From: Nemertoderma westbladi
Taxonomy: Eukaryota; Animalia; Xenacoelomorpha
Direction: 5' to 3'
Assembly: GCA_032718475.1 (NCBI GenBank)
Contig: JAUCBJ010008604.1
Coordinates: forward strand, 1 to 64,000
Length of the DNA stretch: 64,000 nt
Each line of letters begins with the position of its first letter. Within the stretch, counting starts at the first letter, position 1. Both the position numbers and the translations under genes were made by a program. Positions 1 to 29,145 of the stretch are shown here, piece after piece. Under the pieces are notes generated by a model that saw only the letters and a program-made list of their open reading frames with translations, was not told the DNA's origin and searched no databases.

Positions 1-1
1 G

Positions 2-3000
2 TGCCTAAAGTATCTACAAGTGTACACGGGAGGCCCAGCATACGATATCGTGAGGCAATACCAAGGAATAGAGGGCGGCTTCACGACAGCATGGCGGGCA
101 CTGGATAGGGAATACGGGCACCCGGCCAAGATCATCAGGCAGACGCTGAGAGGCATAACATCGGGTGGCCTACAGGATAATCCCGTTAGCATTAAGACGT
201 TTGCTAACAAAGTCGAGAAGGCACTGATCGTGCTGAAGACGCTAGACGCGCCATACGAGCTCAACGCGTCCAATAACATCACCACGATAGCGCAGGCACT
301 ACCGAGCTGGCTGCGCAACAAATGGAGGAAGGTCGCTTTCTCCACCCGAGACAAGAAGGGTGCGGAACCAGGTTTAGAAGAAATGTCAAACTTCTTAAAT
401 TACGAGGCTGAACTAATAACGGACCCAGTCTATAGTGAAGATAGCCTGGGAAAGGGACCAAAGGCAGATCACTACAGGCCCAAACCAGAGCACAATACAT
501 CGAACGCGTTACCGAGACTCAGGCAATCATTGCCATATGCAGCGACGCAGGGGACTGCAAGTCCACAGGCAAGCGAAGATAGGACAACATCAAGGGACGG
601 ACAGGGGAACAATAACAACATGAATAAACATAACCCCAGTACGTCCAGTAGGTCAAACCCAGTCAATAAGAATAGTAGGGACTTTGGTACAAACATAACT
701 GCGATACGCAATGCATTGTATAAAGAGGGCTACGACCCAAAAAGCAAGTGCCAGTTACACGCAAATGCGCTTCATAAAACCATGAACTGTAGGTACTGGC
801 AAGCGCTACCGAGGCAAGACCAGATAGATTACGCGTCGAGCAATAAAATCTGCTCGCGATGTGTGAAGAGTGGACACAAGGCCAGGGAATGCCAAGAGAA
901 GCCGGTCAAGTTTGGCCAAAGGAGAGGCCAGACGATGGCAACAAGCACAATAGGGGCGAAGAAGAGAGGAACAGTGCTACTTGGAGTAGTACCAGTGCGA
1001 GTGATCGGAGAAGGCAATCGATCAGTAACAACACTAATGCTGGTTGATAGTGGAGCTGCCTTCACATTAGTTGAGGAATGGGTAGCCGAAGAAATAGGGT
1101 TGAGAACGAGGCCAAGCAGGATGGCGGTGACAACCATCTCTAGCAAAGACGAGATCCTAGAGATGAGGACAGGACGGTGCGCAATTGCGGCAGTGGCACC
1201 AGGATGCGATTACGGGGCAACCATCGACCCCATCCAAGTAATAGAGTCAATTAACATCAATGCCAGGCGGCCAACCAACATCGAGGTCGAGCAATACAAA
1301 TTCCTGGACAACATTGACTTCTCAATCCCAAACGTGGACGTTAGGAAGGTATCCATCATAGTAGGCATGGACTGCCCAACGGCCCACGAGAGAATGCAGA
1401 CGGTCTTCGGCGAAGACAAGCAGAGCGACCCGGTGGCCATACTAACGCCATTCGGGTGGACGCTGAGTGGTCCAATTAAGAGCAAGATACCATTCAGGAT
1501 GTCGGAGACATCAGGATGCATGTTCGCGGGAACAATGCAGGAAATGGGTGACGAGGGAGCGGAGGAGCAGCTTAAAAGACTGCTCAGGCAGGACTTCGAG
1601 GGACTGAAAGAGACCGGAGTCGGGACCTCGGTAGAAGACAAGCAGGCTCTACAAAGTGTGGAGGAATCCATGACGTGTGATGAGGGGCGGTATACAATAG
1701 GAATGGTGTGGAAACTACCGAAGATACCGCTACCCGATAATAGAGGGATGGTACTCACGAGACTCCGCAAGCTGAAACAAACACTACAACGGAGCCCCGA
1801 GAAGAACGAGTACATTCACAAAACCATTAAGAAGTACGTCGAGAAAGGATGGGCCGTGGAGTTACCGGTCGACGAACCGAACACGGACAGGACATACTAC
1901 CTGCCACTCCACGTAGCTTTAGACCCAAAGAAAGGTAAACTTAGGATGGTAGTCGATGCATCGGCAAAGACCGACGGAAAGTGCTTAAACGATTACCTAC
2001 TAGAGGGCCCAAACATATACAATTCGGGCATAGAAGTACTACTTAGGTTTAGGAATGGGAAACACGCCTTCACGTGTGACATAGAAGGCATGTTCAACCA
2101 AGTCCGAGTAACAGAGGAAGATAGCGATAGTCAACGCTTCTTATGGTATAACGGCGAAGAAGAACCGCCTATAATACCGGCATATAAGATGGTAGTACAA
2201 AACATGGGAGCCAAGTCGTCCTCATTTACGACGACTATGGCAGTGAGAGACACGGTAAAGGGGAAGGAGGATAGATATAGCAGTAGGGCCGTCGACATGA
2301 TCAGACGCGGTTTCTACGTAGACGACGGCATGGAGTCTGGAAATACGGTTGAGGAGATACTGGAAACAGGGCGCGAGGTTCGCGACATCCTGAGAGGATC
2401 CGGCTTCAACCTGACCAAATTCCAATCCAGTTCAGAAGAATTTATCAGGGAAATAGAGGACAAGAAACCAGAATCGACCATGGACAACCCTACAACAGCC
2501 AAAGGACAGGACATGGCGATTAAGAGAACGGAATCCCAGCAGAAGGCGTTGGGAATCGTGTGGGATAGGAAAACAGACGAACTGAAGTATCAGCTGAGCC
2601 AGGAGGGCGCAGACACCCATACGAAGAGGGGTTACGTATCGTATATAGCAAGGATATACGATCCCTTAGGCCTAGCATCCCCATTACTAGTCACGGGGAA
2701 ACAGATACTCAAGAGAGTATATAAGTTGAAGGATGAGTGGGACGTAGAGGTACCAGAAGACATTAAGAAACAGTGGAGCAAATGGACAGGAGACTTGGAG
2801 AGGATGGGAACATACAACATGCCGCGAGTGTATTTCCCGGACGGGAACATGACGAATCTGGACCTACATATGTTCTCCGACGCGTCGTTAGAGGCATACG
2901 GAGCGGCACTCTATTTAGTACAACGAGAGGGGCCTCACAAGCCCAGACTAGCCTTTAGCAAAGCTAAGTCAACGCCGCCAGATTCAGCATCTGTTCCCAA

Positions 3001-4954
3001 GTTAGAATTGACAGCCGCGAGACTAGGAGTTAGAGCCACAGCCTACCTAGTGGATACAATTCCCAACATAGTGGAGACACACTACTGGACGGACTCCATG
3101 GTAGTGCTTGGTTGGCTACACAACGAAAAGACGAGGTACCCGATATTCGTCGCGAATAGAGTGGACGAAATAAGGGCGAGCACAGAATTGGAAAGGTGGC
3201 ACTACTGCCCAACAGACGAGAACCCAGCGGACTTGCTGTCGAGGGGCGTGGAACGCCACACTTTCTTAAAGAAAGAAGTATTGTGGCAACACGGGCCACA
3301 ATTTCTGAGCGATAGGGAGGCCTGGCCGCCGATGAGGAAGGTGGACCCGGGCTCGGAAGTAGTATCAGAAGGAGAAGAGGGAGATTCAGAGGGAGAAGAG
3401 ATATACTCCCAGATGGTGAGGGAGATCAGGGACGTGCAACCAGGAAGGGAACTGTGCGATAACCCGACGGATAAACTCCTCAGCTACAGTTCTAGTTGGT
3501 ATAAGACCAAGAAACTAGTGGCGTACTGGAGAGCCTTTGGGAATTTCCTTGCGGGAGTCGGCAAGGACAAGAAGACCAGGACAACCATAGATCTGGAAGG
3601 AGCGGCCAAGGCAGTCATCCGCTATGAACAACGCAAGAACTACGGCGACGAGGTGGAACGTGTCGGTAACCAACAACATCTCCGACGGGATAGCGAGTTG
3701 ATCACGCTGTCGCCACAACTCAACGAGGATGGGATCCTAGTAATGAATTCAAGGGTGGGATATAACAACAGTATAGTCGTGCCACCGAAACCCATCATCA
3801 TTCCCACAGGATCGCCTATAGTCCACCAGATCATATGGGACTCCCACAAATCGATACTGCATGGGGGCACCAACCGAACCCTCACAGAGATAAGGAGGAC
3901 CTATTGGGTCAAACAACTAAGGAAGAAGGTTAAAGCGGTAGTGGGGCAGTGCCAGACCTGCAGACGAGCGAAGAAGGAACGAGCCGTACAGGAGATGGCG
4001 CCACTACCGGCGAGTAGGGTAAGACAGCACGACCCGCCATTTACACATTGCGGTGTGGACATGTTCGGGCCGATAAAGATCAAGGTGATGCGACACACGG
4101 AGAAACGCTACGGTATTATCTTCGTATGCAACAATACGCGGGCGGTAGGGATAGAACTCGCCCAAGATGCAACCGCATCAGCCTTCATTAACGCCTTAGA
4201 AAGGTTTAGGGACCGCAAAGGTGGGACGATCGCAGTGATATATAGCGACAACGGCACCAACTTTGTGGGTGCAGAGAGTGAGATGGCAGAGGCCTTAGAC
4301 ATCTTGGAGGGAGAAGAAGTCAGGGCGGCCATGAGAAGACGACAAGTGAAGTGGGAGAGACGGACGCCGTATGCACCACATACACTAGGATGCGTCGAAA
4401 GACTGGTGGGCAGTTCGAAACGTCTAATGACGAAGCTGATGAACACCCACATGGTCACTGAAGACGTCTTACGGACGGTACTTGCAAAGTGCGAGGGGAT
4501 CATTAATAGCAGACCGCTATACCCGGAGAATGATGACCCTGAGTCACTAGACGTGTTGACGCCTAGCCATTTCCTGATGGAAAGGCCAGCGACCATAGAT
4601 ATGCGGGGTGTAGACCCAGATGATATACACTCCCGGCAAAGTTGGAAAGTAGCTAAAGCAATTAGCGCAGAGTATTGGAGGAGGTGGGTAGAAGAATACC
4701 TACCCACGCTCCATAAGCGAAGCAAGTGGAGGAAGCCAAACAGGGAGTTGAGAGAGGGAGATCTCGTAATCGTCACGGATGATACTATCATCAACAACCA
4801 ATGGCGGTTGGCGAGAGTTGTAGGCACCTACTCCGACGAGGACGGAAGAGTCCGATCGGTAGAAGTGCGGATAGGTGGAAAGATAGGTGCGAAAGACAGG
4901 AAAACCTACAGGAGAGCAGTAGGTAAATGCTGTCTCCTAGAAGGGGCACCTTAA
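2..4954 (+). CDS. BEL/Pao Gag-Pol polyprotein, 5'-truncated by window edge
   Basis: Frame is open from base 2. DUF1759-like gag, Cys-His motifs (CSRCVKSGHKAREC), aspartic protease LVDSGA, RT (CDIEGMFNQV, FYVDD), Pao RNase H (FSDASLEAYGA, YWTDS, NPADLLSRG), integrase (H..LHGG, CQTC, GVDMFGP, SDNGTNF, VERLV) and DUF5641-like end (YWRRWVEEYLPTL, DEDGRVRSVEV). No internal stops. Confidence 0.97.
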   Translation, partial: CLKYLQVYTGGPAYDIVRQYQGIEGGFTTAWRALDREYGHPAKIIRQTLRGITSGGLQDNPVSIKTFANKVEKALIVLKTLDAPYELNASNNITTIAQALPSWLRNKWRKVAFSTRDKKGAEPGLEEMSNFLNYEAELITDPVYSEDSLGKGPKADHYRPKPEHNTSNALPRLRQSLPYAATQGTASPQASEDRTTSRDGQGNNNNMNKHNPSTSSRSNPVNKNSRDFGTNITAIRNALYKEGYDPKSKCQLHANALHKTMNCRYWQALPRQDQIDYASSNKICSRCVKSGHKARECQEKPVKFGQRRGQTMATSTIGAKKRGTVLLGVVPVRVIGEGNRSVTTLMLVDSGAAFTLVEEWVAEEIGLRTRPSRMAVTTISSKDEILEMRTGRCAIAAVAPGCDYGATIDPIQVIESININARRPTNIEVEQYKFLDNIDFSIPNVDVRKVSIIVGMDCPTAHERMQTVFGEDKQSDPVAILTPFGWTLSGPIKSKIPFRMSETSGCMFAGTMQEMGDEGAEEQLKRLLRQDFEGLKETGVGTSVEDKQALQSVEESMTCDEGRYTIGMVWKLPKIPLPDNRGMVLTRLRKLKQTLQRSPEKNEYIHKTIKKYVEKGWAVELPVDEPNTDRTYYLPLHVALDPKKGKLRMVVDASAKTDGKCLNDYLLEGPNIYNSGIEVLLRFRNGKHAFTCDIEGMFNQVRVTEEDSDSQRFLWYNGEEEPPIIPAYKMVVQNMGAKSSSFTTTMAVRDTVKGKEDRYSSRAVDMIRRGFYVDDGMESGNTVEEILETGREVRDILRGSGFNLTKFQSSSEEFIREIEDKKPESTMDNPTTAKGQDMAIKRTESQQKALGIVWDRKTDELKYQLSQEGADTHTKRGYVSYIARIYDPLGLASPLLVTGKQILKRVYKLKDEWDVEVPEDIKKQWSKWTGDLERMGTYNMPRVYFPDGNMTNLDLHMFSDASLEAYGAALYLVQREGPHKPRLAFSKAKSTPPDSASVPKLELTAARLGVRATAYLVDTIPNIVETHYWTDSMVVLGWLHNEKTRYPIFVANRVDEIRASTELERWHYCPTDENPADLLSRGVERHTFLKKEVLWQHGPQFLSDREAWPPMRKVDPGSEVVSEGEEGDSEGEEIYSQMVREIRDVQPGRELCDNPTDKLLSYSSSWYKTKKLVAYWRAFGNFLAGVGKDKKTRTTIDLEGAAKAVIRYEQRKNYGDEVERVGNQQHLRRDSELITLSPQLNEDGILVMNSRVGYNNSIVVPPKPIIIPTGSPIVHQIIWDSHKSILHGGTNRTLTEIRRTYWVKQLRKKVKAVVGQCQTCRRAKKERAVQEMAPLPASRVRQHDPPFTHCGVDMFGPIKIKVMRHTEKRYGIIFVCNNTRAVGIELAQDATASAFINALERFRDRKGGTIAVIYSDNGTNFVGAESEMAEALDILEGEEVRAAMRRRQVKWERRTPYAPHTLGCVERLVGSSKRLMTKLMNTHMVTEDVLRTVLAKCEGIINSRPLYPENDDPESLDVLTPSHFLMERPATIDMRGVDPDDIHSRQSWKVAKAISAEYWRRWVEEYLPTLHKRSKWRKPNRELREGDLVIVTDDTIINNQWRLARVVGTYSDEDGRVRSVEVRIGGKIGAKDRKTYRRAVGKCCLLEGAP

Positions 4955-5069
4955 ATTAGAGTTAGTGTGAAGTTTAGTCGTCCAAGTTTTGGACTGAGGG
5001 GGGTGGGATTGAGGGCGAGACGCCCTTCCCACACAAATAAAATAAAATAAAATAAAAAATAAATAAAAG

Positions 5070-5895
5070 TTAGTTAGTTAGTAGGTACGTAGTACCTAGA
5101 GTTAGTTAGTTAGTAGGTACGTAGTACCTAGAGTTAGTTAGTTAGTAGGTACGTAGTACCTAGAGTTAGTTAGTTAGTAGGTACGTAATGCCTAGATAGA
5201 GTTAGAGGGTAGGTAGTACCGATAGTTAGAGTTAGTAGGTACGTAGTACCTAGTAAGTTAGTTAGTTAGTAGGTACGTAGTACCTAGTTAGAGTTAGAGG
5301 GTACGTAATGCCTAGATAGAGTTAGAGGGTAGGTAGTACCGGTAGTTAGAGTTAGTAGGTACGTAGTACCTAGTTAGAGTTAGAGTTAGTAGGTACGTAG
5401 TACCGATAGTTAGAGTTAGTAGGTACGTAGTACCTAGTTAGAGTTAGAGTTAGTGGGTACGTAGTACCTAGCTAGAGTTACAGGGTACGTAATGCCTAGA
5501 TAAGGTTAGAGGGTAGGTAGTACCGATAGTTAGAGTTAGTAGGTACGTAGTACCGATAGTTAGAGTTAGTAGGTACGTAGTACCTAGTTAGAGTTAGAGT
5601 TAGTGGGTACGTAGTACCTAGTTAGAGTTAGAGGGTACGTAATGCCTAGATAGAGTTAGAGGGTAGGTAGTACCGATAGTTAGAGTTAGTAGGTACGTAG
5701 TACCTAGTTAGAGTTAGAGTTAGTGGGTACGTAGTACCTAGTTAGAGTTAGAGGGTACGTAATGCCTAGATAGAGTTAGAGGGTAGGTAGTACCGATAGT
5801 TAGAGTTAGTAGGTACGTAGTACCTAGTTAGAGTTAGAGTTAGTAGGTACGTAGTACCTAGAGTTAGAGTTAGAGAGGGTACGTAGTACCACTAG
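5070..5895 (+). repeat. Tandem array of about 27 palindromic units (TAGGTAC-GTA-GTACCTA and variants) with GTTAG/GAGTTAG spacers, period about 30 bp
   Basis: Counted by eye. A 120-bp higher-order repeat is visible (5581-5700 matches 5701-5820). Confidence 0.95.
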
Positions 5896-6406
5896 TTAGA
5901 GAGAGAGAGTAAGAGGCAAAAGGGGGTAAAAATAGGATATAGATATTAGTTAGGAGTAAGTAGAGTTAGTAGCGAGAGGGGGGCATATGAGTGCAGCTGG
6001 ATAAATCGTGTGGCCACACGACGCATACTGCTGTACTGCATAGGCCCACTGATTAGGCCAGAATATGGATCAAAGAGAGAACAGAATAAATCCATAGGCA
6101 GTAGTAAGTAGTAGGACAGTAGAATCAAAGCAAAATAAATAAATAAATAGAATAGGGCTAAAAATCGGAAAATAGTGGTAACACAAGAAAAGTCGTTCTA
6201 GAACATAATAAAAGTAACGGACAGAAATCGTAAACTAGGCTGATTTACTAGCTCCGAAATTAATTAAATTAAATTAGGCTTGAAAGGCGCAGTTAAGTAG
6301 AAAAGTAGGCCATTATCGAACTGTAGGAAACATCTCAATACATCACTCATCTGTATTGCGCCTTGGTAAGGCACCACCCTGCAGGTGAGCGAGTGTAGTG
6401 TTCGGA

Positions 6407-8941
6407 ATGGCGAGTAAGCTGATCAGGAAGAGAAAGGCGGAGTCAGGAGGAAAAGAAATATTGGTGGATTTCACCGAAAGACACCCGGAGGAGAAGACGA
6501 GAGGATACTACGAGAGGTTGGAAAGGGGTCACGCGGCACGAGCGCTGCAGGATCACTTCCGGGAGGCGCACGAACAGCGGTTGGTCGGGACCTACGGGAC
6601 GCCGTCGCTGGATAACGCAATCTTCCAACACTTCCACTACGTAGTGAAAGGAGACGAGGCGAAGTTCGGGATTCCGAAGTATCCGAGGGAATCGCCGAGG
6701 AAGGACTGGAAAAGATTCATAGAGTCCGTCAACAGAGGAGGATATATGATCCTAGATGACGAGGGAACCGTGGAAGACGAAGCGGGATCGAGACGAGGAA
6801 CGGCAGGATCGGCCAGGACCATACTCTTGCATTTGGCAGCGCCAAATGGGGACATCTTCTTATTCGACTTAGGGACGTATGGGAAGAAGGACGGGCCGAA
6901 ATTAGACCGACTGCCGAAAGCGGTACAGGTCTTAGTAAGAGAGAAGTCGACGACGAAAGTGGGATCGGCGATTCGCGAGGACGCGGAGAGGATCATCGGT
7001 CCGGACGCCACCAACCTCCTGGATATGCAGAAAGTCTTTATGGCTATGACGGCACCGGATGGATTGGGGGTGGTCGAGAACTTAGGCCAATGCGGGGCGG
7101 TGGCGATGGGCCAATTATTGGGGCTCGTATGCCACAAACCAATGGATTGGGGGAAGTTTAGGGAAGAATACGGAGCAGAACTAGCGAACTCGCTGAAGTG
7201 GGGAGCGAGACCGGGAAAGCAGGAGGTATATCAGTTTCGCAGAGGAGCGATAAAGGTATATCAGAAGCGATATATCCTGCAGGAGGACTGGATGATGATA
7301 AGTTTACTTAACTTATTCATGACCGTAGTTATCGAAAGAGAACCAGGGGCATTTCTGTTATCGGGATCACCCCTAAGCTACAGGAGAGCCTTTAAGACGG
7401 CCTTTGACGGTCTGGTAGACCACCCGGGGCTGAAGGGCGAGTCGGTGTACTACAACAGCCGACATCTGGTAGATGGGGAGACGGATACACCGTATCAGAG
7501 ATGGGAGCAGCTAGAGATGGATAGACGGGAAGCAAAGCGACTGGAAGAAGTCGCTAGACGGGAGAGGATAGAAGCAGAGGAGAGGGAAGAGGAGGCCAGG
7601 ACACAGAGTTATGGCTTCGAGGAACAGGCGGGTCTAGACGAGCTTCATTGGACTTCGTCAGGGAGTTCGGGGGAGTCTCTAGGACGAGAATTGGGATGGA
7701 CGGTGGGATCGCCGAAACAGTCGACGTCGGGGTTGCAAACGATGCCCATACCAGCGGGCGCCGAGGGCGACCAACCGCCAAGGAAGTTAAGGGAGCTAGA
7801 GGGATGGAGAGCTACCGGCGAGAGCCAAGGCGGGAAGGGACATACTGGATCCATCGGGATACCGGGATTGGAGACGCTACCGGAAGAAGAGGACGACGAC
7901 GACGAATTCGGAGAGATACCGCCCATCGAAAGGATAGGCCACTCGGACACGGACTGGGTTGGCGGAAGGGTGGTGACGGCCAGTGGGGCAAGGGCCTTCT
8001 GGAACAGATCCGGCAAGCGGACCTGGGTGCACGAGGGGCCGGCGATGGATTTCGCGGGGAGCACCATCAGGTTGGGCGAGCAACCGGGGACGGCACCACG
8101 GATAGTATTCGGGGAGACGATGCCCGAGAGGGGCGGAGAGATAGACGTGAACAGGGAGAGCAACGTAGAGAAGTTCGCCTACCAGCGACTCCATAGACCG
8201 CGGAGATCGCTTGGGACGAAGGACGAGGTGGGACGCGAGACATTGGTACTCGGCTGCGACTACTGTGGGAGACAGACCCATCAGGAAAGCAGCTGCCTAT
8301 ACCGGTTCCAACGGGGAACCTTTTGTCTCTATTGTAGAGAACCAAGTCACAGGATGGGGGCGTGTCCACGGTTGCATAACCGATGTCCAAAGTGCCACTT
8401 TCGGGGACACTACGGACGCGAGTGCGACTGGATGAGCGACGAGGAGAAGTTCACGAGGTTCGAGGAGTGGGCCGACGTCGGGGCCATGACGCGCCAGCGC
8501 ATGAAGGCCCAAGAGTTCAAGTGGGGTTTCTTCCTCATAAACCAGGAGACCCACATGGAAATAATAAAGCGAAGGTTACCGTTTACCTATCAAGAGGTAG
8601 CTACGGCGGCATCGTTCGCCGGAGTTATGAACACGCAACGGTACCTGGACAGGTGGACACCAGAGAACCGGAGGGAGTTTAGGGATTTCTTGGCGGAACA
8701 CGTACCAAAGGCAATGAAGATGATCCTATGGGACGCCACACGAGGGAAACAACCAGGCCATTCTGAGGGGCCACCGGCGAAGCGGTATCGGGCTTTAATA
8801 ACACCAGCGCCCAAGGAGCCGACGACCGGGATCAGCAAGGAAGTGGCAGCGAAGGTCCGGAAGCAGAAAGCGGATGATGCCAGAGGAACAGTGATAACCA
8901 AGAAACGGGCCAGGGAGGAGGACGTGAGGAGGTACAGATGA
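6407..8941 (+). CDS. Retroelement ORF2: DEDDy (WRN/EXD/mut-7-like) 3'-5' exonuclease domain, coiled-coil and acidic linker, three CCHC zinc knuckles
   Basis: First ATG at 6407 (GGAATGG), in-frame TGA at 6386. ExoI-like YMILDDEG (D 6755, E 6761), LLHLAAPNGDIFLFDL, ExoII-like LPKAVQVLVREKSTTKVGSAIRED (D 6980), LLDMQ, ExoIII-like QKRYILQED (Y 7271). Knuckles CDYCGRQTHQESSC, CLYCREPSHRMGAC, CPKCHFRGHYGREC (8255-8425), all CX2CX4HX4C. The ORF is secure; the exonuclease call is by motif recognition only. Confidence 0.8.
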   Translation: MASKLIRKRKAESGGKEILVDFTERHPEEKTRGYYERLERGHAARALQDHFREAHEQRLVGTYGTPSLDNAIFQHFHYVVKGDEAKFGIPKYPRESPRKDWKRFIESVNRGGYMILDDEGTVEDEAGSRRGTAGSARTILLHLAAPNGDIFLFDLGTYGKKDGPKLDRLPKAVQVLVREKSTTKVGSAIREDAERIIGPDATNLLDMQKVFMAMTAPDGLGVVENLGQCGAVAMGQLLGLVCHKPMDWGKFREEYGAELANSLKWGARPGKQEVYQFRRGAIKVYQKRYILQEDWMMISLLNLFMTVVIEREPGAFLLSGSPLSYRRAFKTAFDGLVDHPGLKGESVYYNSRHLVDGETDTPYQRWEQLEMDRREAKRLEEVARRERIEAEEREEEARTQSYGFEEQAGLDELHWTSSGSSGESLGRELGWTVGSPKQSTSGLQTMPIPAGAEGDQPPRKLRELEGWRATGESQGGKGHTGSIGIPGLETLPEEEDDDDEFGEIPPIERIGHSDTDWVGGRVVTASGARAFWNRSGKRTWVHEGPAMDFAGSTIRLGEQPGTAPRIVFGETMPERGGEIDVNRESNVEKFAYQRLHRPRRSLGTKDEVGRETLVLGCDYCGRQTHQESSCLYRFQRGTFCLYCREPSHRMGACPRLHNRCPKCHFRGHYGRECDWMSDEEKFTRFEEWADVGAMTRQRMKAQEFKWGFFLINQETHMEIIKRRLPFTYQEVATAASFAGVMNTQRYLDRWTPENRREFRDFLAEHVPKAMKMILWDATRGKQPGHSEGPPAKRYRALITPAPKEPTTGISKEVAAKVRKQKADDARGTVITKKRAREEDVRRYR

Positions 8942-9617
8942 GTTCCCGGAGGCGAGGGAATGAGACTGAGACTGGGAGGTGGTGCGCCTGGAAGGCGCCG
9001 CATGTAACGTACGAACTATTAAATATAAATTTAATTAATGCAAATAACTATATAAGTGCAATTCGTATGTACGTACGTAGTGATTAGCAGTAAAATATAT
9101 ACGTTTGGAGTAAGTACTATAGTCATACAACCTTTCTCAACTAGCTACTGGGACTGGGGGACAATGACTATGGCACTATGGACGAGACAACTGACAATTT
9201 CACACTTCTTGAGTGCGGCGGCACGAGAGGGGGGGGAGGTTCGTCAGGAGAGATAAAAACAGTCAAAGTGGACTTGAGAATCGGAATAAGAGTGATAGAG
9301 TGAAGTGCGGAGAGAGTGCGAACGCAATCCTAGTGTGGGGGGGGGAGAATGAGAGGCTGAGTAAGGGACGAGGAGGTCCGGGGGTATGAGAGAGTTAGGG
9401 TGAGAGTGAAGGTGAGATAGGGCGAGAGTGTTGGGGAAACAAAAATCGCGTGAAGAGGTGAGCGCGATCGGCCCGACATGAGACGCCAGGCGTAAAGGGT
9501 AGCGTTATCATACCCAGAGGGAGCGGCCCGGAAAGCCGACTCCGAGAGAAAAGATTTCCACCCCACACCCGATGCTAGATCGGGATCCAGCGGGATTGTA
9601 GCGCACTTTTTTGGTTG

Positions 9618-9655
9618 ATGCTATCTTCTTACCGGGAAGATAGCATGGGGGGGAG
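9618..9655 (+). promoter_or_regulatory. Hairpin plus polypurine tract (plus-strand primer site)
   Basis: Perfect 11-bp inverted repeat ATGCTATCTTC/GAAGATAGCAT (9618-9646), then GGGGGGGAG (9647-9655), then TG. Confidence 0.8.
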
Positions 9656-10192
9656 TGTTAGCTTATTCAATCCCGCCAACACCCCATAAAGTTATTAGCC
9701 GATAAGCAATATTGGGAGCCGCGAGATTGGGTAATTAACCAACTCGCGCCATCCCAATAAGAATGGGAAGGAAGCACACAATAGAGGGTCAGGGGCCAAA
9801 CCCCTAACCCAAGGAGAACAGGTGGAGTTAACGGGAATACTCCACGGGGCGCCAACAAGGGTATTAACCAATCAGAGGGGGGAACGGCATCGATTGAGTA
9901 GCAGTAAGGCCACCGTGCAATATAACCAATAACCTATTAATCAGTGATTCAGTTATCTCAAGTGCAGCAGTGCTAGCGTAGGGTACAGCCAATTAGTTTA
10001 GTTAGGGGATCACGGGACTTTAGTTACCGTATCCCGCCTTGTACACATTCACAATATCTATATCTTATAACTTCCTATTATACACCGAACTTCAGAACTC
10101 AGTCACTTTATTTCATCCTTATACACGGCGGGGACGCGTGGACTAAATTACCACAACCGGATAAATCGGGATCCCTCTTGGATCCCGTCACA
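9656..10192 (+). repeat. 3' LTR (about 537 bp)
   Basis: Starts TGT right after the PPT and ends ACA; several CCAAT motifs and a TATA-like AATATAA near 9919. The 5' LTR is outside the window, so the right end is inferred. Confidence 0.7.
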
Positions 10193-10213
10193 CTGCTCGC
10201 CACCTGAAACCGG

Positions 10214-10540
10214 TTAATCCACTGAGGTCGATTCCTTCGGCTTCAAATTCTGTCCAAGAATTTTAGTTGTTGGTACGAATTTTCCAACACCGCACCACAT
10301 TTTCCAGTATAAACCCCGTACTTTTCGAACATGATCAAGCTGGTCAGGGAAGGTTGACAGGTCCTTAATTGTCCCAAATATGTTAACCCCGTATGTCAGA
10401 GTGGGTAATAATATACTCTTCCACAGGCGCTTGGCTGTTTCTTTGGAGACAATATTGAGTTTTATTTTGAGATTTAGACGGATTATACACAAAACAGTAC
10501 ACAATATACTGTACAATACACCTTCAATGTTGATCCACAT
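10214..10540 (-). pseudogene. Non-LTR retrotransposon (LINE) RT C-terminal remnant
   Basis: Translation ...KETAKRLWKSILLPTLTYGVNIF... resembles the post-RT LxKxxxxPxLxYG motif; bounded by the LTR on one side and a MITE on the other. Confidence 0.6.
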
Positions 10541-10541
10541 A

Positions 10542-10907
10542 GGCCCCCCTCACACGGAGAAACTTGTTGCTCAAGAAAATAACAATTATTTCAAAACAAA
10601 TAGCTAACATGTCCAGTCATATATATATATAATATAAAATCACTGAATTTATCGAATATTAGCTATAGTATAAAAATTGGATGTAAAAAAGTTTTTAAAA
10701 ACCTTTTTAACATCCAATTTTTATACTATAGCTAATATTCGATAAATTCAGAGATTTGATATTATATATATATATGACTGGACATGTTAGCTATTTGTTT
10801 TGAAATAATTGTTATTTTCTTGAGCAACAAGTTTCTGTGTGTGAGGGGGTCCAGCAACAAGTTGCTGAAACAAGTTGCAGAAACAAGTTGCTCCGTGTGA
10901 GGGGGCC
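10542..10907. mobile_element. Palindromic MITE
   Basis: Termini GGCCCCC(C)TCACACGGAG ... CTCCGTGTGAGGGGGCC flanked by TA; 10542-10850 is a near-perfect fold-back centred near 10697. Confidence 0.8.
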
Positions 10908-11834
10908 TAAGAAACATATCATATGTTGTATTTTATTATTTTTGTTTTTTCTTTTAAGAACATATTTTCATTCAATACTTTCACCCCACTAACATACAGT
11001 AGGCCTACGTTTTACAAATTCCATATCATTTTACCAACGTGGCACAATTATTGACCAACTCTTCTCAAGAGTCTCCAATAGTTGCGGTTTGAATGCATTG
11101 AGTTCTTGGTAATTATTGGTGGGCTTTGTCTGGAGTGGCCAAGGGTCACCAAGACTTTGTGGGTCTTGGAGGTTATTGAGAAATATTGGCTTGGCTTGTC
11201 TTGGTGTGATTTGAGACTTTTGTTAATTCTTGTTAGCAATTGCTGAATTGAGGATTCTTGTCAGATCTTGGCAAGAATGTTTAAGCGGGGCTTCGTTCAT
11301 GTGGCACACAGAACTCAAAGTATAACACTGCCTAACATTATTTTATGCTTATAATATTATGATGCCAGATAGTGGCGCACATTGACTGCATGCAAGTGAA
11401 AATATTGATCTTCATCGCAAATTGACCGCAAGTGAAATAAAATCTTGTTCATTATTTTTGTTAGAAAACAATTCCACTGTAACCTGCTACTTTCCCTTAA
11501 CGGGGGGGGGGGGGGGGGGGGTACACCATTTTGGTCCAAAATATGTCGAAATTTTTTATGGTCTATTATAATGCACCGTTGAATGGTGTTTCCAAATCTG
11601 AAAACCGCTATTTAATAGCTCTTTTAGTTTTCAAGTTATGTAAATTTCCATTTAGGGAATCCTATTGAAATTACTATTACTATGTACAATGAAAGGTCGA
11701 CTATCTCCAAATATTTTTTTCATGAAATTGTCATCTTCAAAACCCTACTACTTCTACAATTTTTGAGTAATTAGTCTGAAACTTCCTGTGGGTGTCTAGA
11801 TAGCCACCCTGACTTGATAACTGATTTGTCTGTC

Positions 11835-12095
11835 AGTCGGCACAACGTAACGACGACACTGTCGGCACAAAGTAATGCCAACACTGTCGGCACAACGTAA
11901 CGCCGACACTGTCGGCACAAAGTAACACCATGAACACTGTCGGCACAATTTATCGCCGACCCTGTCGGAATAACGTAACGCCGACACTGTCGGCACAATG
12001 TAACGACGACACTGTCGGCATAACGTAACGCCGACACTCAACACATTATCTGCACACTGTCGGCACAACGTTATGCCGACACTGTCGGCACAGCG
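11835..12095. repeat. Minisatellite of about 25-27 bp with internal palindrome (GTCGGCACAACGTAACGCCGACACT)
   Basis: About 9-10 degenerate tandem copies. Confidence 0.85.
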
Positions 12096-18110: not shown

Positions 18111-20212
18111 GCAGGTCAGGATTTTTGAAAATAAAAAATTATAAAGCAAATTATAAAATTGTCAAAAACCATACAAATCCTAATCTATGTCGCTTTTTTG
18201 GATGTGAAGATGAGTAGGACATACATACAGTACAATATATCTAATGTTTAGTTCTGAGGCATAACAGCGAGAACATGCGAGCCACGTAGTAAAGGCGAGC
18301 CTTAACGCACTATGATAATTAGTAAATACTGGAAAATTTATTTCGAGTTATTATCATATTCGAGTTAGTGAAATATTGAAACGAGGGACCGAAGTGAGAT
18401 AAAAGTACATTATACACTATAAAATGTTGTTTTATTGTTAAATTTCTTGATTACTTAACGCTCGTCTATGGACGAGCCGCAAATAATCCATCTATCTACT
18501 ATATTTACGGCTTGTCCAAGGACAAGCGTTAAGTAATTCAGAAATTTAACAATAAAATATTATAATTATCCTTTGTATCATATTACAAGAAAGATTGTAA
18601 CATAGTCTTTATTTTCAACAGTTTTATTCTAAACTTCGTGGCCTTTATATTAATTTGATCTTATCTTTCGTTTATTATTTTGGTTCCATGAGAAATTTAT
18701 TATTCGCCTATATTATACAGAAAGTACTTTATTTGCTAACCATTAAGATTGGATCAGGGAGCCAAATGGAGTGTAAACTTGAGACATGTAAAATGTAATG
18801 AGAAATGTAAAAAGTTCTAAAATTATTTCTGTTGTTTCGTTAAAAATTAATTAATACAGTATAAAGGCCATAAAGTTTAAGATAAAGAAGCTGAAAATAA
18901 TGTTACAGTTTATTTTCTTGTATTCTATGATACATAAAGGATAATTACATTATTATAATTGCATTAAACATACTGTATAATATAGAACTTATGTCCATTA
19001 ACTTGGTACGAATTATCTGCATAGCTATTCGCACAGCAGAAGTTTCCAATAATGCGATTTCGTCGTTAAGGCTGTGACGGTGACCCTCCGCTCCTGTGTA
19101 TCAATACCGTTTTCATTTTCACCGCAATCCCACAGCGCCAGTTTAGTTTGTACTGTAGCTTAGTTTGGAGTTTTGATGCGTGGTATGTGTAGACATCTAT
19201 AGGTATCTGGATCGTTCGTCAATAGTCTCTGTGTCTCTCCTTTGTATATTTATTGCTAAATTCATCAATTATTCTAGAATCAACCTGCAATAAAAATAAA
19301 ATGTTAGTTAGTTATTTTCATAATTGCAGGGCAGTGATGGCAAAATACAGCACGAGTACATGCAACTTTTAAAAGTTCATATCTCAGCAATTCCTCAAAG
19401 AAGTTCAGAGTTTGTTACTGTACATATTGTAATTTGTGGAAGATAGGTGCCATACAGTATAGTTTGGTGTAAGTTGGATGCTGTTGTGTTGAAGTTGGGT
19501 GTAGTTGGTGAAAGTTGGGTGTAGTTGGGTTGGGTGAAAGTTGGGTGTAGTTGGGTGAAAGTTGGGTGTAGTTGGGTGTAGTTGGGTGTAGTTGGGTGTA
19601 GTTGGGTGTAGTTGGGTGTAGTTGGGTGAAAGTTGGGTGTAGTTGGGTGATTAGGCTGACCCTCTGCTGATCTGCCTATTGATGGATTAGATTGACCTGA
19701 CTGCCAAAGCTTGATTGGCAGATTGCATTTCTCAATATTATATTTTACAGTTTTATGCAGCATTGGTAGATCAGCTGATCAGTAGATACCGGTCTGCCGG
19801 TAAGCCTGCTACAACAGCACAATATATTAAAATAATCGATTTGATTTTTGTTTTAAATATTACTGTATTAGTCAGTCCAGCAGGCAGGCAGCAAGAGTCC
19901 AGCCAGCCAGCTGCCAGCAGTGAAGTTTTATTGTTGGCTTACTGGCTGACTGCTGGACTGGCTTAAAGTTAAGTCCAGAAACTCAAGTCTTTAGTCAGTG
20001 GGTTTCATGCATGGAACCCAAAAAACAAGCAATTTGGCTCTTTTTGTGATCAAAAACCTAAAATCCTAGTTTTAGGCTTTTTTCAAATTTTAGGTTTTTG
20101 ACAAAAATCGACAAAAACCTAGGTTTGGCAGTTTAGGCCCTACAAAACTACTTTGCCAGCCCTGTGCCTGGTGCCTGACTGTAACAGTAGCCTAGCGCTA
20201 GCCTCCTGCGAT

Positions 20213-22763
20213 ATGGATAAAATCGAAGCATATTCAGGAACCGATCGGTCCCTGGACGCCGGAGTTTGTCGATCCAAACTAGCTTCCGCAATCGCTGACG
20301 CCGTAGAGTTAAGCAACAAAGATGAGTTATTAAACTGTTACAACCAGGAGATAGGCGGCAGTGAAGCCGACAAGAAGATGACGTTGGACCAAGCCTTTCG
20401 GGACGCAATCAAAGGCAACATAGGCAACATCGACTTGTGCCTTCGTATCATTGATTTCTGCATCGAGTTAGTTAAAGACGGTATGACTTCAACCAGCGCG
20501 ATATTCGCTATAATAGCCGACGCTCTGGATCTGCTTCCGCTGGAGCATTGCGAGAAAGTTTTCACCTACATAGAGAGTAACGTAGCCGTATGGAAGCAGG
20601 ATCATCTCTACTCCGCCGGGAAGACCTACCTGCTGCGGATGTGCAACGACCTGTTGCGTCGACTTAGCGAGTCGCAGCAGACGGTTATCTGTGGCCGAAT
20701 TCAGATGTTTCTCGCTCGACTATTCCCGTTGAGCGAGAAGTCAGCCCTGAATCTAATGTCCCACTTTAACGTGGATAACCGGACAGTGTTCAGCAACAAA
20801 GAGGAAGTAATCCAGAACCACCTGCGGGAAGAGGGAATTGAGGAGGGGGAGCTCACGAAGATCGCGCCCCCCGTCGACTACGATCTATACCGAAAGTTCT
20901 GGACTCTCCAGGACTACTTCCGGTTGCCCACGCAGTGCTACGAGAAGGCGGCGTGGAGAAGGTTCACTCGCTACTCAGATGACGTCCTCACCGTTTTTGC
21001 TTCCTACAAGGTTGACGTTAGTCAGTCCTCCCGCAAACGGAAGCACAGCGTAACCCAGGATGACGTCACCAACCGCGAGATGACGTCATCCGATGAGGTT
21101 TGCTTCACTAAGTTTCTAACCAATGAGAAGCTCCTGGATCTACAGATGAGTGACCCCAACTTCCGGCGACATATTCTCCTACAAATGCTCTTCCTATTTC
21201 AGTACCTCGGCGGTAACGTGAAGTTCAAACTCGCCAATCAGGTGATTATATATGAATTAATATACATTAAATGTTAAACTCAACTTAATCTGATTATTTA
21301 ATTTTTCTAACATTTACAGATTTAGCATAAAGGGAAAATCTTCAGAAGCGCAGCACATATGGATGACTTCATATACGAGAGTCACTGCCTTCTAGTCAAA
21401 ACATTCTTTATCTTATTAAAAACAGTGAGCAGAAAGAAGGCGCTCTGCTCTAATATATGTTAAATATTAAATTAAATACAATTAAAAAATAATTATAAAT
21501 AATAATTATTGGCTTACAGTAGTATTATGTAATCATTGGGTATTGACGACGGTATTGTGATTGCATACAATGGGCCTGCAATACAATATCATGCAATGGT
21601 ATAATAATACATATATATAGCAAAACAGCATACAGTAAAATCCAGAGGCTTTATACTACTGGCGTGGCGAGTGACTTTTTTTAAACTTTTTTTAACTAAA
21701 AAATACAAAATAGTGAAGGGAATTATGTTTTTATTTAATTCACTCAAATAGTTAGCCCTAATTAACTTAAAATTAAGTAAAAGTTAATTTTTAGATAAAA
21801 TTATAAATAACCCCAACAATCCAAATATCCCCTCTACAGGTTCTCTCTGACGATCAGACTGGGTGGATAACCTCGACCGAGACGCGGGTTTACTCAATGC
21901 TGCGGGACACACCGCCGGATGGGCCCCAGTTCGCGGCCACGGTCGACCAACTGCTAAACCGTGAGACCAACTGGATCGGCTGGAAGAACGAGGGCTGCGC
22001 GTCGTACACGCGGCCACCGCGCGCGGAATCCCGCGTCAAACTGCGGATCCGGCGCGCCTCGATCGCCGACGACGAGGTTCCCACGCACCACTCGCACGAT
22101 CTCGGATCCGCCGAACTCACCCGACTGTGGAACATCGCCCCGGATAACATGCAGTCCTGTAAACTCCCGGAACGCCGATTGCAACCCACGCTGGAGGCCT
22201 TCTTCGAGTCCCCGGTGCAGCAACTAAACCCGAACTGCGGAATAGAAGACGAGTACAAGGCGACCCACCAACCCAACCACCAGTGGCGCGCGTTGCGGCT
22301 CCTGTCCCGCAAGGCGCCGTTCTTCTTCCATCCGACCACCCAAGCGTTCGCCAACATGAGTCAGTACATGGAGTACATGTGCCGGAAGCTGGCGAAAGAG
22401 TACCCGAACTTGGGGAAACAGTTGGAGGGAGGGGGGAGTGCGGTTGGGAGTAACGGTGGAGGGAGCAACGCTGTGAGCGACAGCGAGGGGAGCGAGAGTG
22501 AGTTCGAGGATACGGAAACAATGGTGACGGCTAAACAGTTGGAGAATCTCGCTGGGAAGCTGACGCCGCCAGAGTGGAAGAAACTCGCGATACAATTGGA
22601 CTTTAAGGATATGGACATACAGGAGTTGGCGGACAGCTACGAGGAACCCCTGACGCAGGCGAGGAAGATGCTCGCCTCCTGGTTCACTAATAACGGGACT
22701 AACGCCACGTTAAAGTCATTAACTACCGCGTTAACCGACGTCGGCTTGTCTAACTACCTATAG
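20213..22763 (+). CDS. THOC1: THO complex subunit 1 (Hpr1), two exons: 20213-21241 and 21840-22763
   Basis: LLRMCNDLLRRLS, CGRIQMFLARLFPLSEKSALN, LYRKFWTLQDYFR, NWIGWKNEGC, ELTRLWN, WRALRLL and a C-terminal death domain. Phase-0 intron CAG|GTGATT ... CTACAG|GTT joins the frames. Confidence 0.96.
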
Positions 22764-25317
22764 TGCCGTACGGACTTTATTTAGTATCGTTAACTTTCAT
22801 TTTGTTAAGCTAAGTGTTTATTTTTCGTTTTCTTACAATTTACGTACATTTAATTATACATGTACGCCAAACGAACTGCGTGTTTATTTCGATAGTCTGT
22901 CTGGCCGCTATCCAACTCAAGTTTTGGGTGACTATGTGATCTTACTGTCAACCTACTTCCAGAATATGCCCATAAGAGTGCTCTTACAGATGGAGTTGAG
23001 GACCGATGTAAATATCTATTAACTATCCTCACATAGTTGAAACTCAAAGAGCTGGTGCCGTGGAATAGCAAAATACATTGCGGAATGGTCTTGACATGGT
23101 AATAACGAACGGAAATTCCTTTGATTGGGTACATCCAGTCGAGTTATTTATTTTAAACTAGCAACCAATTAACAATAGAATAATATGTTAACAGTAAATT
23201 ATAAAAAAGGCCATCTTTCAAGCGCCCAGACTCACCCTCCTAGAAAATTCCAAGCGACCTTTACTCCAAGTTTGAGTCAGACCACGTAGAATGTAAATGT
23301 AGAATTTCGCACGCAGTGCCCAAGAGATGATTGACATTAAATAACTATAATTCTCGTGGTCTCCTGTCAGGACATTTATTATATTGTTCCTTACAGCCAA
23401 CTACAGTCGTACCTCGTAAAAATATATTTCCCTTATTACAAATAGTAGCAAAATAAATAAATTTGAGTCATTTTATCAAACTGTATTTTATTGCAAATAT
23501 ATTTTACCGAAAATTTTTACTTCTACCGATCTTTCTAAATGAAATACCGTAATTAAAAACATGGATGTGACTTTGTGTCTTAACTCTATAATATTGAAAC
23601 ACAACCTGATGGGTAATCCATAATATAAAATAAAAAAGGTTGTGTTTGACCTAATAATTAATGTAATATAATTATTCGTCTCCAAGTTCATTACTCTGGA
23701 GTCCCGAATAGACACGTCTATAAATTTTTGAAAAAAATTCCACCCACAATTCTCTTATTTTTTATTATGAGTAAATAAACGTTTGTTCTCATAATAATTG
23801 AGAGTTGAAAGTGAAAGTAAACAAAAACCGTGTACCGAGTATACCACCGGTAGCCGTAGGTACTACTGTACCTGTATAACTGTGTCAAAAATGTTCCTCC
23901 CACCCCGTTTATTCCACCCACCCCGTCCATCGGGACTCCTCCAGAGTACACACACATTGATTCTGGGTTACAACTAATAAGCAATCTCTTCTTGACCTTT
24001 AATAATAGCGCACACCGACGTTTAATAATTGGCTGTTAAGTGTGTTCGAGAGCAATGGATATTGAGCTCAACATGTTAAGATCTTACATATTCTTAATTA
24101 TCTCGAGAATTAATTAATTAATTAACGCGTAACTTTCCTATTCCAAGGCCGATACACAAATAAACCACCATACAAAGTCTCGTATCGATTCACCGTCAGT
24201 GTTTAGGCGGAGATAGGGCTACGACAAACATACATAATATACAACATTGACAATTGTATTATTGTATTATATGGCGGCCAAACAATTTATATATAAATAT
24301 TTTTATATTCCACTTGGCCCATGGCTGCCATAATTTTTTTTATTCTTTGCTCCTCGTGGCCCATGGCTGCTAGTTGCAGGTAAACAGGTCCATTGATGGA
24401 TGCATCTCTCAGTACAAATGGAGATAACTTCAAAATTATCGGCACCTTTTTGCTTTTTGCTTTCGGAATCGAAACTTGCTACAATCTTCATTATTTAGCT
24501 GTTTGAAGTTCCATCCATTGAGAAATTGTAGCCGTGATTATATTTGAAAAATTACTGTGATGTGAGCTGTGGGGCCATACTAAATGCTCGAAACCTTTAA
24601 TCATAAATCAAAGGTTCAAAAGTCAAACTAACGCCATATTCGTAAGATTATTTAAATATAGGGATGTCGATCTGTTTAAAAAAATCTGGAACATAAATAT
24701 ATTCTACTGGTTCTGGATCGGGATACTGTTTGGATTTGATCACTAGCATAAGATAATGTTCAAACATACAAATAGAAAGGTTTTATACATTTGGAAACAT
24801 GGCCAATTATGCTATTTTGTAAAACTATAATATAAATCATTGAAAATTGATTTCGTTGAATCTGAAATAAAAATAAAAGTTCCAAAATTTTATAAACGAA
24901 ACTACGGACTTAAGAAATACACGGCATTTATAATTTTTTATTGCTCGATAAATGATATTGATCAATATATGATAATGATATTGATAAATGATATGATTGA
25001 ATTATAATGATACCATGATAAACCGTTAAATGTTGAACGGTGTTTGTGGTACTGTGTAGTCTATAGCCCCTTCGCAATTTCATTCTAAAAAGATCTTGTC
25101 TATAGAGTTTGTCTAAATGACTTCTCTATTCGTTTATAGCACTTGTTTGTTTCGTTTCATCGGTATAGGGAATTTGTTTCTCTAAACGAATAAATTTGTG
25201 TAACGAATTGTTACACGAACGAAGACATGCTATGACAAGTTTTACATTGGCGGATTTATGTATTATTATAAAATAATAGTTAAACAAATAAATTCTCCCA
25301 AACAATATTATAACCTA

Positions 25318-26223
25318 TCACGGACAATCGTATATATGAATTGCTTTATCGTCTGAAACCGACACAAGTTTGGAACCAGTTCGATTAAACCGACACGACC
25401 ACACCTGGTCGGTGTGGTCCGCGAAGGTTGCCTCGCATCGTCTCTCCCCTACATGCCACACCCTGCAGGTCCGATCAGCGGAGGTGGACGCGAACCGAGT
25501 GTTATCGGGGTGGTAATCGACGCTGAGGACCCATGAGGCGTGTCCGGACAACGTCGAGACAAGAGATGCGGCCAGAACGTCGTAAACCTTTATATATCCG
25601 TCGTCTGAAGCTGTAATCAACAGCTGGGAAGCGGGAGAGAATGAAAGTCCTCGTATGGGCATGGCGTGGCCTTCCAACGTGTGTATGAGACGACCTGTCG
25701 CCAAGTCGAATATGTTTATAATACCGTCGATAGCACCGGAGGCCACGTATTTACCGTCCGGACTACAAGCCAACGACATTGTAAACTTCCCACGCGTATC
25801 GAGCGACGTTTCTTTCTCTCCTTTATCGATGTTAAACACGTTTATCTTTCCGGAATGACTTCCCGTTATGACGTTCTGTCCGTCCGGTGTGAATGTCACG
25901 GTCCAGGCGTCCACTGGGCCCGCGTCTATGGTCTTTAGGAGGGTCCCCTTACTGGTGTCCCACAGTCGTATCTGGGAGTCCAGTGAGTTGCTCGCGATTA
26001 CGGTGCCGTCCGGGTTGATGTCCACCGATACGACGCCCAGTTGGTGGCCCTCGAACACGTGCTTGAGGTCGAGTCGATCGTCCGTGTAGCGCCAAGCCTT
26101 GACCAGGTCGTCAACGCCGCCCGTTACTATGTAATCTATGTCGTCCTTCTCGCAATGTTTCCACGCGCAGCTCCAGATTCCATCGTCGTGCGAGTTGCTT
26201 TGCTTATACTGAACAGTATACAT
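25318..26223 (-). CDS. WDR61: WD40 protein WDR61/Ski8 (SKI and PAF1 complexes), intronless, 301 aa
   Basis: [64 protein letters not shown], end IHIYDCP. Probable start MYTVQYKQ at 26223. Confidence 0.96.
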
Positions 26224-27729: not shown

Positions 27730-28043
27730 TTGAAAAATATCGAGAGTAAAAATATCGGGAGTAAAAATATCGGGAGTAAAATTAGCTATAATTTTTTGTA
27801 TGAAACACTAGCTATCGACGAAAACATTAGCTAGTACCTGATTACTATAGAAACTAAAATAAACATTATTAAACATATATAAAGTATTTTACTCGCGATA
27901 TTTTTACTCGCGAACTTTTTACTCGCGATATTTTTACTCGCGAACTTTTTACTCGCGATATTTTTACTCGCGAACTTTTTACTCGCGATATTTTTACTCG
28001 CGAATTTTTTACTCCCGATATTTTTAAACTCGATATTTTTCAA
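27730..28043. mobile_element. Small inverted-repeat element made of 15-bp units (TTTTTACTCGCGATA)
   Basis: 3 units in one orientation (27733-27780) and about 10 in the other (27885-28042); ends TTGAAAAATATCGAG / CTCGATATTTTTCAA. Confidence 0.65.
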
Positions 28044-28148
28044 AGTCTCAATAAATTGTTCAGCAATACCTAGTCACGCATTTTCTACGGCGTAAATATA
28101 ATCAAGTTGGGAAAGATTGAGGTAGAAAGAAAATTCAATCTCGATGGT

Positions 28149-29105: not shown

Positions 29106-29145
29106 TCCAGCACTCAGAAAGTCAACAATGTACTCTGCAGTTCTG

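Follow-up and report, generated by a model that had tools for sequence, protein, structure and literature searches.

The 64,000-nt stretch of the Nemertoderma westbladi genome analyzed here (assembly GCA_032718475.1, contig JAUCBJ010008604.1, positions 1–64,000, forward strand; hereafter the window) harbors a BEL/Pao retrotransposon with a second open reading frame (ORF), ORF2, between pol and the 3′ long terminal repeat (LTR). The usual view of BEL/Pao elements is that they have one ORF and at times borrow an env gene. The locus raises the question of whether ORF2 belongs to the element, what it encodes, and what it does there. ORF2 is a real and integral gene of the retrotransposon. Modeling gives good support to a DEDDy 3′–5′ exonuclease fold in its N-terminal domain, three zinc knuckles follow, and the protein may, tentatively, act on the element's own RNA. 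The element is organized as follows:

2–4954, + strand: BEL/Pao gag-pol ORF with the end of gag, protease, reverse transcriptase (RT), RNase H region, and integrase; its 5′ part lies outside the window
4955–6406, + strand: non-coding spacer of 1.45 kb between pol and ORF2
6407–8941, + strand: ORF2 (844 aa), with DEDDy domain, disordered linker (predicted), triple CCHC knuckle, helical module, and basic tail
9618–9646, + strand: hairpin of 13 pairs (z −4.45) directly 5′ of the polypurine tract
9647–9655, + strand: polypurine tract (PPT), identified from the sequence
9656–10192, + strand: 3′ LTR (TG…CA, 537 bp), identified from the sequence, loose ends of contigs, and a drop in depth

A Pfam scan of the ORF at 2–4954 identified a BEL/Pao pol (PF05380, E 5e-40; DUF5641, E 3e-24) with the Pao-type domain order DUF1759, Asp protease, RVT_1, PF05380, Integrase_H2C2, rve, and DUF5641. 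The single gag-pol ORF with a protease, an RT, an RNase H, and an integrase in this order, the Pao-specific domains, and the PPT followed by a TG…CA LTR (seen in the sequence and in repeat boundaries at 9656 and 10192) place the element among BEL/Pao retrotransposons. The window starts inside gag, and the partner 5′ LTR lies outside it. The hairpin preceding the PPT was equaled in stability by none of 200 shuffles.

The ORF2 frame extends from stop to stop at 6389–8941, has its ATG at 6407, and is uninterrupted. It lies on the same strand as pol and resembles it in composition, with an AT skew of 0.24–0.29 (0.24–0.36 in pol, near 0 past 10 kb, the skew ending close to 10.2 kb) and a third-codon-position T of 0.09 vs. 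0.12. This is in agreement with an earlier interpretation made from the letters of the DNA (the sequence-only reading), which described an intact ORF of ∼844 aa between pol and the PPT/LTR with the strand and purine bias of gag-pol and held that it was not env. Some BEL/Pao (Belpaoviridae) elements, namely roo, Cer, and Tas, do carry an env-like second ORF, and the window's element resembles them in its pol domain set and in having a second ORF before the PPT. Unlike theirs, ORF2 is predicted to encode a soluble nucleic-acid-binding protein and not a glycoprotein. Since the peak 19-residue hydropathy was only 1.3, located on the ExoIII helix, ORF2 has no transmembrane segment by this measure. 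By hydropathy and structural matches, ORF2 did not show the signal peptide, transmembrane anchor, and fusion glycoprotein fold of a retroelement env; the structural matches were exonucleases. The env identity was rejected on the lack of a transmembrane segment and on the fold. The basic patches pointed out earlier are present in the translation as candidate nuclear localization signals (NLS).

Contigs of four public DNA runs (X1–X3 and X6, from three samples) were placed on positions 9560–10300. The X6 contigs had loose ends at exactly 9656 and 10192. Depth, which is a sum over contigs and serves as a boundary signal only, not as copy number, was about 19,000–84,000 in X1 just inside 10209, in the tens of thousands across X1–X3 and about 40–150 in X6, and dropped past 10209 to 22 (X1), 55, 5, and 0 in the four runs. 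Over positions 1–12000, the X1 depth was 35,000–69,000 on ORF2 and 51,000–104,000 on pol, i.e., of the same order, and likewise in X3. Of 1156 differences between copies of the window's family, the 40 best supported included 20 in ORF2, 16 of which were synonymous. The same data showed further variation among copies. A depth peak of about 626,000 was observed in X1 at the hairpin/PPT within 9560–9935, depth was higher over the first 280 nt of the LTR than over the last 250, and loose ends occurred at 9935 in all four runs; these ends suggest that related families share the PPT and the 5′ part of the LTR but not its 3′ part. X1 and X3 contigs skip 544 nt at 8419–8964, so the final part of ORF2 is missing from some copies, and loose ends at 568 suggest that gag ends differ between copies.

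The features of the ORF2 protein are as follows:

6587–7453, + strand: DEDDy 3′–5′ exonuclease-fold domain, residues about 61–349 (profile, model)
6755–6763, + strand: ExoI, D117/E119 (conserved columns)
6980–6982, + strand: ExoII, D192 (conserved columns)
7271–7285, + strand: ExoIII, Y289/E293 (conserved columns)
7490–8239, + strand: long charged helix (residues 362–401) and likely disordered linker (402–611), from the predicted local distance difference test (pLDDT)
8255–8425, + strand: three CCHC zinc knuckles, residues 617–673 (pattern, alignment)
8432–8656, + strand: conserved helical module, residues about 676–750 (alignment, model)

Searched alone, ORF2 matched no Pfam family, and against PDB sequences it matched knuckle proteins only, weakly, and no exonuclease; its single-sequence fold was discarded (pLDDT 32). 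A HMMER search with ORF2 of 1.84 billion representatives returned 75 matches, in nearly every case by way of the knuckles and the module that follows them. A profile built from the N-terminal stretches alone gathered 34 of 74 of these matches, and the long relatives therefore share the N-terminal domain too; the other 40, mostly short knuckle-only pieces, lie outside that profile. The spurious match P0043, a repeat protein, was left out of the family analyses. The profile of alignment A1 (31 rows: ORF2 and 30 relatives) matched EXD2 (E 1.6e-10), Egalitarian (E 0.001), and WRN (E 0.005). The Pfam family PF01612 was matched by three of the 44 relatives scanned, the best at 23.3 bits and below the gathering cut-off of 23.6, and this shortfall is due to divergence and not to a different fold. 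In the Atlas, the domain adjoins clusters of PF01612 at 0.94, with the family on 34% of members. Word-index homolog searches found no relative beyond the query's own member, which is not evidence of absence, and neither four scans of viral contigs nor a first metagenome scan with the relative P0059 found any.

The model based on A1 reached a pLDDT of about 75–93 over most of residues 100–300 and 610–770. Foldseek gave 19 matches at E < 0.001, headed by the trypanosome RNase D TbRND (E 9e-5), Egalitarian, Nibbler, and Rrp6, and VIA-align gave Z scores of 13.9 for Nibbler (203 residues, root-mean-square deviation 3.2), 13.6 for WRN, and 13.3 for TbRND. The Z score of 13.9 and the EXD2 profile match place the modeled domain within the DnaQ-like fold, and a DEDDy exonuclease fold is well supported by the model, as the sequence-only reading had proposed. 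That reading had also listed ExoI/II/III-like motifs in order, and the residues align with columns conserved in the family: among the 31 rows, D117 is Asp in 19, E119 is Glu in 21, D192 is Asp in 19, Y289 is Tyr in 26, and E293 is Asp or Glu in 24. The four acidic residues and the tyrosine of the DEDDy set are all present in ORF2, so far as alignment and model tell, and its product may be an active exonuclease. Nibbler/MUT-7, EXD2, WRN, Egalitarian, and EXD1 of the PF01612 clan show the same fold and motif order at 10–18% identity to ORF2, and none has its domain set. No host donor can be named because the scores of Nibbler, WRN, NrnC, and RNase D are tied, and orthology to any single host exonuclease was rejected for this reason.

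Behind the domain, the pLDDT was 78–91 for the helix at 362–401 and about 30–35 for the linker. The three CX2CX4HX4C knuckles that had been read from the sequence begin at residues 617, 640, and 660. Knuckles 2 and 3 are nearly invariant in the family (C and H columns in 31/31 rows, the last C in 30/31), and the H column of the first is kept in 16/31. No family name was found for the helical module behind the knuckles. Among the homologs, P0002 (633 aa) and P0049 (326 aa) have a duplicated knuckle block, and P0048 has a homeodomain match behind the knuckles. A DEDDy domain followed by tandem CCHC knuckles is the architecture of TbRND (PDB 7c42–7c4c), whose knuckles weakly match those of ORF2 in sequence; in TbRND, the knuckles supply RNA binding and raise cutting (PMC7797062). 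TbRND, however, is a cellular mitochondrial enzyme with four knuckles on a 28-residue linker (PMC7797062), whereas in ORF2 three knuckles stand 260 residues away and an extra helical module is present. ORF2 is 15–18% identical to TbRND in structural alignment, compared with >80% similarity among trypanosomatid members, and is not its ortholog; the shared architecture is probably convergent.

Metagenome contigs were scanned with alignment A5, which covers a subfamily about 18% identical to ORF2, and 79 pattern matches yielded 23 loci. BEL pol was found directly upstream on the same strand in 15 of the 23, which bears out the linkage to BEL pol claimed earlier; two others begin inside ORF2 and are followed downstream by a primer site and gag, five have too little upstream sequence, and L023, a 3′ fragment of 732 nt, is 99% identical to L016. 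Twelve gag-pol frames were scanned; 10 contained PF05380, and the remaining two are a gag-protease piece and an integrase end. No whole ORF2-type gene was found apart from a BEL context among the 23 loci, and L003, L007, and L017 are circular 10-kb contigs that read pol, ORF2, an LTR-sized gap, primer site, and gag. A nested insertion and a host-gene neighbor were both rejected on the LTR boundary data and the BEL pol upstream in relatives. The integrases of the relatives are 35–81% identical between families and about 30% identical to that of the window. In 11 dereplicated loci (leaving out the duplicates L002 and L008, the frameshifted L015, and loci without integrase), integrase and ORF2 identities were correlated (Spearman 0.55; 24 of 9999 permutations), as long co-inheritance would give. 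In 10/30 clusters looked up, the longest contig was 9–11.5 kb, a weak hint only. Long antisense open frames of up to 1058 codons (L001:2070–3197, L001:6246–8906, and L020:1548–4721, minus strand) lie over pol and ORF2 in GC-rich relatives and are probably a by-product of codon bias.

The catalytic set is not constant in the family. D-E-(D/E)-Y-(D/E) is kept in 16 of the 31 A1 rows, while 13 depart from it, some by single changes that may be alignment slips, and two are truncated; the ExoI Asp is absent from all 17 locus proteins aligned. A tree of 39 rows (LG+G4) showed two fully supported degenerate clades and placed the degenerate P0061 as sister to the intact P0059 with support of 100, deep nodes being weak. 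From these alignments, catalysis has apparently been lost twice at the minimum, with three or more losses probable. In the dead clade, the exonuclease-like domain has a ratio of non-synonymous to synonymous substitution rates (dN/dS) of 0–0.31 in eight of nine pairs (the ninth is saturated; ratio of the uncorrected proportions, pN/pS, 0.35), and that of the knuckle module is 0–0.18 where computable. By these ratios, the dead domain stays under purifying selection, and the dN/dS check suggested with the sequence-only reading came out accordingly in the pairs of relatives. The earlier term "nuclease" cannot name the whole function, because 13 of the 31 rows and all 17 locus proteins depart from the motif while the domain is under purifying selection.

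The route by which ORF2 is expressed appears to differ among elements. In L004 (L004:2–5857), pol and ORF2 form one 1952-aa frame with no stop. Five families (L001/2, L007/8, L010, L012, and L013) end pol with a TGA, behind which stands CAA-TTA in three of them and CAA-ATG or CAT in the others; no further stop interrupts the frame over the 117–206 codons from this TGA to a conserved Met-Phe start. The linker remained open in 150, 135, 1, 3, and 2 of 2000 dinucleotide shuffles, respectively. In all five families and in L016, a stem starts 8–10 nt behind the stop, with z values of −2.98, −0.66, −5.24, −2.11, and −0.55 in the five and −1.96 in L016:

L001:6021–6085, L007:856–920, L010:6684–6748, L012:6696–6760, L013:6643–6707, and L016:3412–3476: segments with the stop and stem

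In a fixed register, which suits three of the six sequences, seven of nine stem pairs change on both sides; pairing in register was 67% compared with 31–43% for slid controls, a test that leans in favor, the structure having been derived from the same sequences. Known readthrough signals include CAR-YYA and UGA-C with a stem about 8 nt downstream (PMC3542737). The relatives show these features, i.e., a UGA-C/CARYYA context, a stem-loop at about this distance, and an open frame, with CAR-YYA matched exactly in three of the five families. Programmed UGA readthrough from pol into ORF2 is likely in the five families, as far as sequence can indicate. These relatives (L001–L013), not the window's element, may thus resemble SIRE1 in reaching an ORF behind pol through its stop; pol-env readthrough is cited for SIRE1, a plant copia element with an env-like ORF (PMC2194720).

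Several observations weigh against this route or its generality. The linker shows no amino-acid constraint (one synonymous and seven non-synonymous differences in two near-identical pairs, in which ORF2 proper has 32 and 6), two of the five stems are no stabler than shuffles (z −0.66 and −0.55), the five families are kin and not independent, and L016 has a readthrough-like stop and stem, yet its ORF2 is out of phase. Ordinary spacers are found in L003, L015, L017, L020, L021, and the window, where the first 450 nt contain 20, 24, and 28 stops in the three frames and pol has no in-frame link to ORF2. Because the window and these five loci lack a frame link to pol, packaging by fusion is not general, and the window's ORF2 must be made separately since its spacer is full of stops; we infer a spliced or internally started RNA. 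This spacer contains an AAATA run (5035–5068), a tandem array (5076–5901), and a candidate splice acceptor ending at 6384, which is weak (23rd of 460 YAG sites ranked by pyrimidine tract). No real similarity was found on comparing the spacer with the LTR. The repeated AATAAA at 5035–5068 is a possible internal poly(A) site, and a short hairpin, G-run, and TG at 4975–5001, just 3′ of the pol stop, resemble a second or vestigial PPT/LTR start.

For the function of ORF2, we favor, at a little short of an even chance, an integral accessory RNA-binding protein that acts on the element's own RNA, as a nuclease in the window and a pseudo-nuclease in others. It is favored because knuckles, module, and fold are constant while catalysis comes and goes, and because fusion to Pol would place the protein in the particle. 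As in trypanosome RNase D, the knuckles would hold single-stranded RNA and pass its 3′ end to the DEDDy cleft; binding RNA would be the constant task, and cutting would be optional. In the relatives, UGA readthrough would append the protein to Gag-Pol at a low level, so that it is packaged with genomic RNA; in the window's element, translation would begin at the ATG of ORF2 itself, on an RNA that is spliced or started internally. It would act in the particle or ribonucleoprotein, and the window's copy would also trim RNA 3′ ends. The likeliest substrate would be the 3′ end of the element RNA, through tail trimming or end protection ahead of reverse transcription. On the other side, the window and a single catalytically dead clade are the only cases in which linkage to BEL is seen, the last acidic residue of ExoIII in ORF2 is Glu and not Asp, and DEDDy folds also cut DNA, WRN tying with Nibbler.

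ORF2 could instead be a trans-acting suppressor of silencing, which would bind or trim PIWI-interacting RNAs (piRNAs) or small interfering RNAs (siRNAs) or, in its dead form, block Nibbler/MUT-7-type trimmers and so shelter the family; we regard this as possible but rather unlikely. Nibbler and EXD1 are among the closest folds, but the Nibbler Z score is tied with those of WRN, NrnC, and RNase D and indicates no specific kinship. Fast divergence (about 15–23% identity to P0001) and repeated catalytic loss fit an arms race, whereas selection on the domains within clades is purifying and not diversifying. That the gene is a separate ORF and has a start codon of its own fits a trans factor; Pol fusion, however, would limit its dose, and the relatives in which it is fused to Pol or likely reached by readthrough speak more for a role on the element's own RNA than for suppression. 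The family is highly repeated in N. westbladi, although the rotifer study saw no clear link between DEDDy ORFs and copy number (PMC5408684).

An Egalitarian-like adaptor, in which the domain would grip the element RNA and direct it to germ cells or into the nucleus with cutting irrelevant even here, is improbable. Both the profile and the structure searches rank Egalitarian among their best matches, and Egl-BicD binds the localization signal of the I-factor (PMC13186709); dead versions persist, the basic patches are NLS-like, and the strong hairpin before the PPT could be a signal. However, 16 of the 31 members keep the full catalytic set at <25% identity, which argues for selected catalysis, and no LOTUS-like or BicD-binding parts of Egl were found in ORF2. 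We consider it distinctly improbable that ORF2 edits DNA ends as a 3′–5′ exonuclease riding on integrase and trimming or proofreading cDNA ends before integration, the role proposed for the DEDDy domains of Dada transposons (PMC3706591). In its favor, the matches to WRN and polymerase proofreading domains are equally good, the profile matches EXD2 best, and the fusion is to the integrase C-terminus; against it, catalysis is dead in precisely those versions that are fused or read through, and CCHC knuckles mostly bind RNA. It is very improbable that ORF2 and the LTR at 9656–10192 form a second, non-autonomous element beside a BEL pol with its own 3′ end: the PPT/LTR-like start at about 4975–5001, the lack of a single contig spanning pol to ORF2, and the 5′ LTR outside the window would suit it, whereas the like depth of pol and ORF2 in X1 and X3, the continuous strand and composition, and the pol-ORF2-LTR-primer site-gag order of L003, L007, and L017 speak against it.

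Other features of the window were also observed. A single canonical gag knuckle is evident 5′ of the protease at 829–960; BEL gags usually have three. A near-perfect palindrome with 155-nt arms at 10542–10852, 350 nt behind the LTR, resembles a miniature inverted-repeat transposable element, and more inverted-repeat elements lie at 15.7–19.7 kb and 29.2–30.4 kb. Positions 20123–33680 hold intron-poor genes that we take, from their translations, to be host genes resembling THOC1, WDR61, FANCL, and U1A/U2B″; by their translations, the genes flanking the element resemble animal genes. A 26-nt satellite (452 copies, 99% identical) occupies 34789–46544 and is followed by a 40/58-nt satellite at 47117–49427. 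The Rfam search gave two matches at E about 0.6, i.e., at the level of chance.

DEDDy ORFs in retroelements have precedents. In bdelloid rotifers, ORF3s of this kind follow pol in the Juno and Vesta LTR elements as well as in Athena elements (Rodriguez, Kenefick, and Arkhipova, 2017; PMC5408684), the DEDDy ORFs of Terminons have been reviewed (PMC6431247), and Dada DNA transposons carry a DEDDy domain (PMC3706591). Like ORF2, the bdelloid ORF3 is an extra ORF in the env position with an RNase D-like DEDDy domain and no transmembrane segment, and its authors proposed that it may process the 3′ ends of element RNA (PMC5408684). The sequence-only reading, which knew of no described element with this layout, overstated its novelty, because LTR elements with a DEDDy ORF where env would lie were described in 2017 (PMC5408684). 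Unlike the BEL/Pao host of ORF2, Juno and Vesta belong to lineages with dUTPase and GPY/F-type integrases; the catalytic residues of ORF3 are reported intact, and the accessible text mentions knuckles in gag and pol only and reports neither readthrough nor dead forms, ORF3 and ORF2 being compared by description only (PMC5408684). Literature searches found no BEL/Pao case of a DEDDy ORF, although spelling variants, subscription journals, Repbase, and Dfam lay outside them and may hold one; nor did they find a BEL/Pao host, knuckles, catalytic loss, or readthrough for DEDDy ORFs. A DEDDy ORF behind pol was thus known before, and the knuckle architecture, the breadth of the family, the repeated catalytic loss, and the likely readthrough fusion appear new here.

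The finding means that an extra gene has been kept behind pol, in intact and dead forms, in families that share only about 30% identity in their integrases. The DEDDy-knuckle architecture, described until now as very unusual (TbRND), is now found in dozens of variants together with an unnamed conserved module behind the knuckles. The natural pairs of proteins, intact vs. dead and free vs. Pol-fused, bear on the question raised by the rotifer DEDDy ORFs, i.e., whether they serve the replication cycle or act against silencing. It is conceivable, though doubtful, that these elements form an old and widespread BEL/Pao class that carries its own small-RNA-trimming exonuclease, or a dead decoy of it, as a counter-defense against piRNAs/siRNAs, dosed by a separate ORF, UGA readthrough, or fusion. 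If so, ORF2 would be a suppressor of silencing that a transposon encodes and that is made from the trimmer fold of its host.

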